Positions 39,064 to 40,524 of a stretch of DNA of 47,955 nt are shown in pieces (position 1 is the stretch's first letter; each line of letters opens with the position of its first letter). The notes under the pieces were generated by a model. It saw only the letters and a list, made by a program, of their open reading frames with translations, made no database searches and was not told where the DNA came from. Made by a program: the position numbers and the translations under genes. Origin of the DNA: a virus; the IMG/VR virus record IMGVR_UViG_3300045988_175607, positions 1-47,955 of that record. The stretch is one strand, 5' to 3'.

Positions 39064-40524
39064 AGATAAAAAATCTTCTTAACTAGAAAAGTTTGGTGAA
39101 TTTTGTTAAATTGCTTTATTTTAATTTTTATATATAATAGATAAAAATTAAAAAGGAGAATAATTTAATGATTAACTTTGGTAGTGATATTGAATTTATT
39201 TAGAATTACGAGAAATTAAAAAGCTCTCGAAAAATGGGAGAATTATACCATTGTGATAAAAAAAGTATTACCACTCATGCCAAAAAACTTGGATATGATT
39301 ATAGTAAACATAAGGTAAAAAAAATTACTACCGTTCCTTTAGATGAAGTTATTGCAGCATATGAAGAATTACGAAGTACAAATAAAGTTGGAGAACTCTA
39401 TAATTGTAGTGGAAATGCAGTAAGAACTTATCTTAAAAATAATGGATATACTTTTCCTTCTCAAGGAAAATTAATTAATATTCCTGATGATGAATTTATT
39501 GCCAATTATGAAAAATTACAAAGCGCTGACAAAATGGGAAATTATTATAATTGCAGCGGAACGGCAATTTTAAAACATGCTAAAAAAATTGGCTATAATG
39601 TTGAAACAAGTCACAGTTATAAATTAAGTCCAGAAGACAAGAAAAGCATTCTTGATGCATATTATACCACAACTTCCACTGAATTAGCTAAAAAATATAA
39701 TGTAAGTCGTGGCATGATTACTAAAGTTTGGTATAACAATGGCTTAATTGGTAAGCAAGAAGCTCCTCCGGTTACTACAATGATTGATTTAACAGGACAA
39801 AAATTTGGTTTATGGACTGTCCTTTATCCTACTGAGCGCCGCAACAGCAATGGCGGTATATATTGGATGTGTCAATGTGAATGTAGAACACAAAGAGAGG
39901 TTGGTAGTTCAGAATTGCGATAGGGCCGTAGTCGTTCTTGCGGATGCAAACCGCAAACATCTAAAGGTACAATAAGAATTACTGAACTATTAACAAATGC
40001 AGGGATTCCTTTTGAGCGAGAAAAAAGATTTGATTCTTGTAGAGACCGGATCACAATGCCTTTTGATTTTTTCGTAAATAATTAGTATTTAATTGAATAT
40101 GATGGAAGATAGCATTATGGATATCATAGTATATATGATTATGAATATATTCATAAACATGATATTATGAAAACCTAGTGGTGTCATGAAAATAATATTC
40201 CTTTAATACGTATTCCTTATACTCAATTAGATAAATTATGTTTAAATGATTTAATGTTAGAAACTACAACTTTTTTAGATTAATATAATGCCGACGTTAA
40301 ATTGGGCAAAATCGGTGAAACCCTTCATAATATTAGGACAATACCGAGGTAAACTCTTAAATAGCGCAAGGTTAAGAGTCACCGTAGAGCATAGATAGTG
40401 AATAAATATAATCTATCCACGAGTGCCCAACTATATAGTTATTATATAGAAAATATATGCCGAACTTATATGATGATAAAATATAAGAACTAAGAGATAA
40501 AAAGCTCTTAGGGTAACAAGTTTG
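39064..40524 (+). ncRNA. group I-type intron (family B) in dut with a PD-(D/E)XK (Vsr/DUF559-like) homing endonuclease ORF
   Basis: Exon ggT | agataaaaaatctt; 3' part has ccacgagtgcc, aatatatgccgaac, hairpin cttata/tataag, hairpin taagag-ataaaaag-ctctta, ggtaacaagtttG | att. Splicing gives ANSVG-IIDADY (dUTPase motif 3). Confidence 0.75.
39168..40283 (+). CDS. intron-encoded endonuclease: four HTH-like repeats (ELYHCDKKSITTHAKKLGY-type) plus C-terminal PD-(D/E)XK Vsr-like nuclease domain; 4 TAG sense codons
   Basis: FGLWTVLYP...GGIYWMCQCECR...SCGC; MPFDFFVNN-Q-YLIEYDGR-Q-HY...W.HENNIPLIRIPY (E.DG.QH motif spans a TAG). Confidence 0.65.

Follow-up and report, generated by a model that had tools for sequence, protein, structure and literature searches.

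In the td intron of bacteriophage T4, the homing endonuclease gene (HEG) is expressed separately from its host gene, late in infection. The closest characterised system to the one described here is the recA intron of Bacillus phage 0305phi8-36 with its endonuclease I-Bth0305I (PDB 3R3P), of the EDxHD family, in which an N-terminal helix-turn-helix (HTH) part is followed by a C-terminal Vsr-like domain (PMC3239194); Vsr, DUF559 and DUF2726 fall together in clade 58 of the PD-(D/E)XK nucleases (PMC3424549). For Agate phages, Borges et al. (10.1101/2021.08.26.457843) describe a group I intron endonuclease, located within an early gene, that is rich in the stop codon which these phages have reassigned, and the authors propose that recoding delays production of the endonuclease to late infection. 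Here we describe a 1461-nt insert in the dUTPase gene (dut) of IMG/VR virus record IMGVR_UViG_3300045988_175607, of which positions 1 to 47,955 (47,955 nt, hereafter the window) were analysed. The insert is very probably a mobile group I intron, located in the motif 3 codons of dut, that would be removed by splicing and that encodes a putative homing endonuclease expected to cleave intron-less dut.

The interrupted dut gene and its group I ribozyme

The coding sequence of dut is split at 39063/39064 and 40524/40525, with the following arrangement.

38722-39063, + strand: dut exon 1, 114 codons, ending ...GCC AAT TCA GTC GGT (ANSVG)
38761-38763, + strand: single in-frame TAG within dut exon 1
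39064-40524, + strand: group I intron, 1461 nt, preceded by U and with a terminal omega-G at 40524
40525-40728, + strand: dut exon 2, 67 codons and TAA, beginning ATT ATT GAT GCC GAT TAT (IIDADY)

Joining of the exons yields a complete dUTPase of 181 aa that matches the Pfam dUTPase family (PF00692) with an expectation value (E) of 1.3e-13 and 51.3 bits (curated cut-off 22), a cut-off that is passed only once the exons are joined, and the dUTPase family phrog_135 with E of 3.3e-33 over residues 8-177. A database search with the joined protein retrieved 3257 relatives, and G114, I116, D117, D119 and Y120 in the motif 3 region are invariant among the aligned homologues. Contiguous dUTPases align with the joined protein without a gap over the junction; these include P0121, likewise of 181 aa and 93% identical to it, which is encoded in an intron-less, syntenic contig (L098); the gene immediately after dut there is RuvC-like and is the one that also comes next in the window. 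At the junction, the DNA of this contig reads AATTCAGTCGGT followed immediately by ATCATTGATGC, and the window reads AATTCAGTCGGT, then the 1461 nt, then ATTATTGATGC; the spliced mRNA would read ...GTCGGT joined to ATTATTGAT.... Gene callers report dut as a 115-aa fragment and a TTG-started stub; the TTG at 40522, listed as a start by the open reading frame (ORF) lister, consists of the final three bases of the intron, and a TTG start of exon 2 is an artefact. In the searchable literature, we found no report of an intron in a phage dut gene.

The insert contains, close to its 5' end, an in-frame TAA (39067-39069) that halts ribosomes arriving from exon 1, and its 3' part comprises the elements of a group I ribozyme.

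40285-40289, + strand: P10 guide AUAAU, complementary to exon 2 bases AUUAU (40525-40529)
40290-40295, + strand: internal guide sequence GCCGAC, pairing with the exon 1 end GUCGGU (39058-39063) as P1
40302-40511, + strand: ribozyme core and 3' helices (P3-P9.1), with covariation
40302-40307 with 40425-40430, + strand: P3
40312-40317 with 40342-40347, + strand: P4
40321-40323 with 40336-40338, + strand: P5
40353-40360 with 40372-40379, + strand: P6
40387 and 40389-40393 with 40456-40461, + strand: P7, with a bulged A at 40388
40394-40398 with 40413-40417, + strand: P7.1-like hairpin between P7 and P3', covarying, with a conserved 14-nt loop
40431-40437 with 40443-40449, + strand: P8
40465-40471 with 40481-40487, + strand: P9
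40490-40496 with 40505-40511, + strand: P9.1

P1 includes a U.G wobble at the 5' splice site and, given the position of the guide, its loop encompasses the whole of 39064-40289. The candidate guanosine-binding pair, G40389-C40460, adjoins the bulged A40388 and is G-C in 24 of the 25 sequences compared. By blastn, 40289-40525 is 68-81% identical to sequences that lie between the split halves of other phage genes, namely the terminase gene of the Staphylococcus phages SA2 and vB-SscS-F1 (Sextaecvirus), the capsid gene of bajarodcaudo virus 1 and the crAss-like phage cr128_1, the helicase gene of cr118_1 and cr6_1, and additional sites in Clostridioides and Clostridium phages; the core ribozyme is common to introns in Staphylococcus, Clostridioides and crAss-like phages.

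A covariance model (R1) built on P4-P8, from which P3 was omitted as a pseudoknot, located 25 cores in the fetched loci, and covariation was assessed in the alignment of these 25 model-aligned cores after P3 had been added back. In this alignment, 93.1% of the cells pair, compared to 33-48% when the 3' partners are slid, and 37 of the 41 pairs are changed on both sides; none of the 500 shuffles reached the observed values. P3, which is outside R1 and so was not fitted by the model, pairs in 83-88% of the cells, with alternation of G-C and A-U, and a structure-blind alignment of 7 sequences made with MAFFT only is 95.5% paired, P9 and P9.1 included. The guide tracks the host exon across four host-gene contexts: the guide/exon pairs are GCCGAC/GUCGGU in dut (in every dut intron), GCCGUC/GACGGU in the terminase gene, GCCCUU/AAGGGU in the capsid gene and GCCAUG/CAUGGU in locus L097, with the splice-site U.G pair retained in all of them. 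P10 shows a compensatory change in L004 (AUAAC with GUUAU) and is reduced to 2 bp in L002. On this comparative evidence, we take the group I assignment to be secure. The subgroup is likely IA-like; R1 matches the T4 td and nrdB region only weakly (td P3-P6, E of 0.009), and we therefore claim no subgroup.

Several alternatives were rejected. Pairing of CGGUG with CACCG (40380-40384) as P4 was discarded since the SA2, bajarodcaudo and CDKH02 introns have not conserved CACCG, an intein because of the TAA two codons into the insert, and a group II intron because there is neither a GUGYG start nor a reverse transcriptase.

A first-pass annotation of the window, made from the sequence alone, had proposed that dut is interrupted, that motif 3 is restored as ANSVG-IIDADY on joining, and that the TTG start was miscalled at the 3' splice site; the full-length dUTPase matches, the gapless alignment and the intron-less allele bear out the former two points, and the coincidence of the TTG with the last three intron bases the third. 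Its interpretation of the insert as an intron also agrees with the covarying core, the U.G pair at the 5' splice site, the terminal G and the P1 and P10 complementarity to the dut exons, all of which predict splicing; by contrast, its term 'family-B' is a private label, and the core is that of a group I ribozyme, likely IA-like.

The intron-encoded protein and its TAG codons

The P1 loop, which is 764-1226 nt long in the dut introns and holds the ORF, is only 10-15 nt long in the relatives; other members of the core family have an ORF elsewhere, for example in P5 in Clostridioides phage phiCDKH02. The stop codon of the dut intron ORF ends one base before the P10 guide. The encoded protein is organised as follows.

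39168-40283, + strand: putative homing-endonuclease ORF, 371 aa, stop TAA at 40281-40283
39168-39755, + strand: four consecutive HTH units of three helices each, at residues about 7-41, 58-91, 107-140 and 155-190
39780-39953, + strand: Cys-rich three-stranded beta module, residues about 205-262, with invariant C235, C237, C239 and C258
39954-40280, + strand: predicted Vsr-like PD-(D/E)XK nuclease domain, residues about 263-371

Homologues keep the N-terminus that begins at 39168. HTH repeat 1 is 56% identical to repeat 3 (E of 7e-15) and 40% identical to repeat 2 (E of 1e-10), and a Pfam search on 45 family members detects HTH_50 in 36 and HTH_11 in 37 of them. An AlphaFold2 model (pLDDT 88) was made from P0001, a protein 96% identical to the window protein with TAG read as Gln; it contains four three-helix units, a three-stranded Cys-rich sheet, which probably binds zinc, and an alpha-beta-beta-beta-alpha-beta domain. 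When the predicted nuclease fold was used for a structure search, 1cw0, 3hrl and 3r3p ranked 1, 2 and 6 among 48,164 chains, the best fold matches being Vsr, I-Bth0305I, DUF559-like, RAP and TnsA. At the sequence level, the family matches DUF5889 (33 of the 45 members, best E of 7e-8) and DUF2726 (20 of the 45, best E of 4.9e-4), the latter with E of 0.11, below the cut-off, for the window protein itself.

The invariant residues of the nuclease domain are E285, D300, E310, D312, Q315, H316, D332 and K335, and the conserved motif is D...ExDGxQH...D, the ExDGxQH portion of which we take to be DUF559-like. D300, D312 (x), H316 and D332 occur in the order and in the secondary-structure elements expected for EDxHD; the Glu of this composite motif is ambiguous, E285 being invariant yet on strand 1. 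In the model, D300, E310, D312, Q315, H316, D332 and K335 are predicted to occupy the places of the catalytic residues in the Vsr and I-Bth0305I folds (PMC3239194). Given that acidic and His residues at the expected catalytic positions are invariant across the family, and that the intron hosting the gene shows presence/absence polymorphism, we consider it highly unlikely that the protein is mainly a DNA- or RNA-binding factor, such as a maturase or a regulator, with a nuclease fold that is inactive as in RAP domains.

The family is large. In metagenomes, at least 1393 relatives of the intron protein are detectable, most of them of about 370 aa; a 275-aa form has fewer HTH units, and in other forms the Cys-rich module is duplicated. 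By tblastn, the Cys-rich plus nuclease module is found in 585 phage records, including intron ORFs in AR9, PBS1 and Lactococcus phage 949. Phage databases already tag the family as homing or intron nucleases, and the PHROG matches of the intron ORF are named 'homing endonuclease' and 'intron encoded nuclease'. RefSeq names the module relatives 'HNH endonuclease' (for example, in NC_019526 RaK2, NC_031039 AR9, NC_015263 Lactococcus 949 and PBS1), and phrog_559 and phrog_374 bear the same name, so these labels would make the intron ORF an HNH endonuclease. This is barely credible: no HNH match is among the Pfam families listed for the 45 members, the predicted fold is closest to the Vsr, I-Bth0305I, DUF559-like, RAP and TnsA structures, and the conserved motif is not that of HNH enzymes. 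Judging from the predicted fold, the HNH name is probably wrong for the whole family.

Two intron ORFs of other phages deserve mention. In the phiCDKH02 intron (L006, 694-1500), which has the same ribozyme core, the P5 ORF opens with the same Cys-rich W-x-V...CxCxCG...SCGC module as here, fused to a different C-terminal part; the Cys-rich module seems to have been shuffled among intron endonucleases. In the crAss-like phage cr6_1 (L096, 1-736), the intron ORF YP_010112695.1 carries the annotation 'endonuclease; mobile intron protein [Bacillus phage 0305phi8-36]'; a relationship to I-Bth0305I was rejected, as this protein has two LAGLIDADG-type motifs (LGFLFADGN and IRGYFDGDGT).

The dut intron ORF is open only with read-through of five in-frame TAG codons, at 39201, 39921, 40083, 40110 and 40176. 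The TAG at codon 315 falls on a position where all 29 of 29 homologues have Gln; L004, with an ORF free of in-frame TAGs, uses CAA there. At the other four TAG positions, too, Gln is common in the homologues. The window, with 31% G+C, carries on the + strand, up to about 41.3 kb, genes for topoisomerase, ligase, a 1685-aa polymerase, nrdD and dut and, on the - strand from 41.8 kb, late- or structural-looking ORFs. None of the large ORFs for replication (polymerase, ligase, topoisomerase, primase-like) has an in-frame TAG. Such codons are frequent in minus-strand ORFs, the lysis-like ORF 5374-6306 and endonuclease ORFs, and occur also in the RuvC-like ORF 40721-41218 (five) and, once, in dut (38761). 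This distribution is the one given in 10.1101/2021.08.26.457843 for phages with TAG-to-Gln reassignment in late genes. From these sequence comparisons, the reading of TAG as Gln (code 15) in this phage is well supported. A megablast search of 25 kb of the window against the phage record collection found no close cultured relative, the only match being a short nrdD stretch in an Enterocloster phage.

Selection, mobility and the proposed mechanism

The window and L001 both contain the intron, and their HEGs have TAGs at the identical five codons. The two HEGs differ by 29 synonymous and 14 non-synonymous substitutions, with a ratio of non-synonymous to synonymous divergence (dN/dS) of 0.11, and the 241-nt 3' core by 5 positions; dN/dS for the dut exons is 0.08. 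These ratios indicate that the intron ORF is under purifying selection. At synonymous sites, the HEG (0.15) has diverged three times less than the dut exons on either side (0.45), which fits a more recent spread of the intron and suggests that it spread after the dut alleles diverged. The intron is present in one and absent from the other of two dut alleles that are 93% identical in protein (the window and L098), is found at the same dut position in three related phages, with endonucleases 58-96% identical, and occupies the same site even where the identity between the phages' dut proteins is as low as about 55-60%. The polymorphism, the shared site in diverged dut genes and the low synonymous divergence of the HEG fit a mobile element that would move between dut alleles upon cleavage by its product.

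Several observations weigh against a functional, mobile intron. Rfam shows no group I (RF00028) or group II match at the gathering score, nor at E up to 10 on 38950-40650, where only chance snoRNA and miRNA matches appear; we read this miss as a limit of sensitivity, not as a counter-argument. P1 has to pair over 1.2 kb, the dut intron has no P2, and a single hairpin is present where IA introns usually carry P7.1 and P7.2, the second helix not having been identified. On the protein side, Pfam searches with the window protein and the 45 members yield no match to Vsr, DUF559 or NUMOD; phmmer with the protein and the family profile against PDB sequences finds no 3r3p or Vsr match and nothing else relevant; and a comparison of the family with E. 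coli Vsr by hhalign results in a probability of 1% and no alignment. The nuclease assignment rests on the predicted structure. Furthermore, the window protein deviates at two nearly invariant positions (N268 to T and G240 to R), and ARAGORN detects no tRNA, and hence no suppressor tRNA, in the 48-kb window (the related contigs are 137-170 kb long).

The failure of Rfam to see the intron, the 1.2-kb span for P1 formation and the fact that splicing is predicted rather than observed would be compatible with a dead insertion that has lost splicing and left dut a pseudogene in this phage. We consider this very unlikely: the dut exons are under strong constraint between the two intron-containing genomes, 93% of the core pairing is maintained with compensatory changes, P1 and P10 are intact and specific for the dut exons, and the insertion persists in dut genes with only about 55-60% protein identity. 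Somewhat less improbable, albeit still unlikely, is an intron that splices properly and is now only vertically inherited, with an ORF that is decaying or silenced and TAGs that are true stops, as the five TAGs, the window without a suppressor tRNA and the two altered positions could indicate. The low dN/dS of the ORF, the conservation of the TAG positions in the second phage, the retention of all invariant family residues, the TAG at an invariant Gln, the in-frame TAGs in late and lysis-like ORFs of the window, the intron-less allele at 93% protein identity and the synonymous divergence of the HEG, which is below that of the exons, all argue against this reading.

The first-pass annotation had described the protein as four HTH-like repeats and a Vsr/DUF559-type nuclease of uncommon architecture that requires four TAG read-throughs. 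The repeat identities and the four three-helix units of the model substantiate the first element. The nuclease type is favoured by the predicted fold, with 1cw0, 3hrl and 3r3p among the top-ranked chains, but not by profiles, which, instead of the expected Vsr/DUF559 and NUMOD, returned DUF5889 and a weak DUF2726. The need for read-through holds, but the count does not: there are five TAGs from 39168, and four only from an internal ATG at 39234. The architecture is not uncommon, given the at least 1393 relatives, the 585 phage records and the same N-terminal HTH and C-terminal Vsr-like layout in the EDxHD family (PMC3239194).

Under the interpretation as a mobile group I intron, the last six exon 1 bases of the pre-mRNA, GUCGGU, would pair with the guide GCCGAC 1.2 kb downstream to form P1 with its U.G wobble; the P3-P9 core would bind guanosine at the P7 G-C pair beside the bulged A, and two transesterifications would join GGU to AUU, restoring ANSVG-IIDADY. 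The whole ORF, housed in the P1 loop with its own Shine-Dalgarno sequence and promoter-like block, would yield the homing endonuclease. Through its four HTH units and Cys-rich module, this protein would be anchored to intron-less dut DNA over an extended stretch, the candidate target being the uninterrupted AATTCAGTCGGT-ATCATTGATGC sequence of L098. Cleavage close to the insertion site would fall to the Vsr-like PD-(D/E)XK domain, probably via D300, E310/D312, H316 and D332, after which the cut dut would acquire the intron by recombinational repair.

Two putative expression signals precede the ORF.

39093-39138, + strand: conserved promoter-like block TTGGTGAA...TTAATTTTTATATATAAT, inside the intron and upstream of the ORF, with a putative promoter function
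39154-39158, + strand: AGGAG ribosome-binding site read from the sequence, 9 nt before the ATG at 39168

The 46-nt block (TTGGTGAAyTTT...AATTTTTATATATAAT) has exactly two copies in the window, 39093-39138 and 8759-8804, where none is expected by chance. Both copies lie just upstream of TAG-rich homing-endonuclease ORFs of different families, Vsr-like (39168-40283) and GIY-YIG (8850-9725), and the block may serve the homing genes of this phage as a portable cassette for expression. A sigma-70 scan did not flag the block upstream of the intron ORF, and its promoter role is accordingly only putative.

Because the ORF contains five TAG codons and the phage reads TAG as Gln chiefly in its late genes, the full-length enzyme would probably be made only after the code switch; before the switch, translation would end early, at the first TAG (codon 12). 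We tentatively suggest, with more doubt than confidence, that the location of the ORF in the P1 loop and the codon 12 TAG act as a timer in which the genetic code separates splicing from homing, perhaps with the 46-nt block as a portable cassette. Before the switch, ribosomes would drop off after 11 codons, leaving the 1.2-kb loop free, so that the long-range P1 could form and dut could be spliced; after the switch, the loop would be translated and the endonuclease produced.

Other candidate introns and comparison with known systems

Several other genes in the window appear to be interrupted. The topoisomerase B-subunit gene (6925-10027) seems to be split: the ORF ends at 8667 and is followed by a GIY-YIG ORF with six in-frame TAGs, and the sequence immediately preceding 10027 codes for a conserved C-terminal part (...ITVEDAIETEKLFEVFMGPSTQPRKEYILKYSEEAND); this insert is probably another intron, one that the R1 core model does not match. 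At 18188-18600, an ORF-less group I core (18290-18479, R1 E of 7e-8) seems to interrupt an ATPase gene within its P-loop (...SVFFYGEK / ...KSGKTTIATRF), and the same gene (18582-20578) is interrupted again by an ORF at 19028-19837 and a weak core at 19803-19896 (E of 0.005), with coding resumed at 19967. On the minus strand, among the late genes (43788-44367), a weak group I core (43788-43933, E of 0.001) adjoins an endonuclease-like ORF (43882-44367), the upstream sequence of which resembles the P4-P7 consensus. The nrdD (anaerobic ribonucleotide reductase) region, 33422-37162, is broken into several pieces that are separated by small ORFs (34656-34976 and 36011-36607), which are probably further introns or endonuclease insertions; in L004, a strong core match of 138.7 bits lies beside an NRDD fragment.

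The dut intron leaves the general understanding of group I introns and homing endonucleases unchanged. It adds dut, at catalytic motif 3, to the phage genes invaded by mobile group I introns, and would allow correction of gene calls in which the split dut is reported as a fragment and a stub. The predicted Vsr-like fold provides an assignment for a large phage family often labelled 'HNH endonuclease', which would improve phage annotation.

Among introns with related cores, those in the terminase gene of Sextaecvirus (SA2 and vB-SscS-F1), the capsid gene of bajarodcaudo virus 1 and cr128_1, and the helicase gene of cr118_1 and cr6_1 match R1 with 131-167 bits and follow the same P1 rule, but where they contain an ORF, it is of a different family (for example, LAGLIDADG-type in cr6_1) and is located either in P5 or 3' of the core. 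Conversely, the ORFs of Bacillus phages AR9 and PBS1 (in the RNA polymerase beta' gene) and of Lactococcus phage 949 ('hypothetical group I intron protein') share the Cys-rich and nuclease module at 35-37% identity but differ in the N-terminal DNA-binding parts and the host genes; our literature search found no characterisation of these ORFs as Vsr-like.

The recA intron of phage 0305phi8-36 shares with the dut intron the kind of element, the domain order and, judging from the predicted structure, the nuclease fold. Nevertheless, I-Bth0305I has no detectable sequence similarity to the dut intron protein, contains two NUMOD2/HTH motifs as opposed to four HTH units and an extra Cys-rich module, and has Asn in place of Asp in the ExDGxQH motif; its ORF is located in P5 of a recA intron rather than in the P1 loop of a dut intron and, unlike the latter, does not use TAG as a sense codon. 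The T4 td intron with I-TevI is similar in being a group I intron, of the IA type that is also likely for the dut intron, in a gene of nucleotide metabolism with an in-frame stop just inside the intron; separate and late expression of the HEG is predicted for the dut intron too. However, I-TevI is a GIY-YIG enzyme encoded in the P6a loop, and its timing depends on late promoters and RNA structure, not on stop-codon recoding. In that respect the dut intron resembles the intron endonuclease of the Agate phages (10.1101/2021.08.26.457843), from which it differs in the reassignment itself, TAG to Gln instead of TGA to Trp. The dut intron would be a second case of a recoded intron endonuclease, a TAG-based one in a phage with a split genetic code, and makes the idea that recoding delays homing testable.

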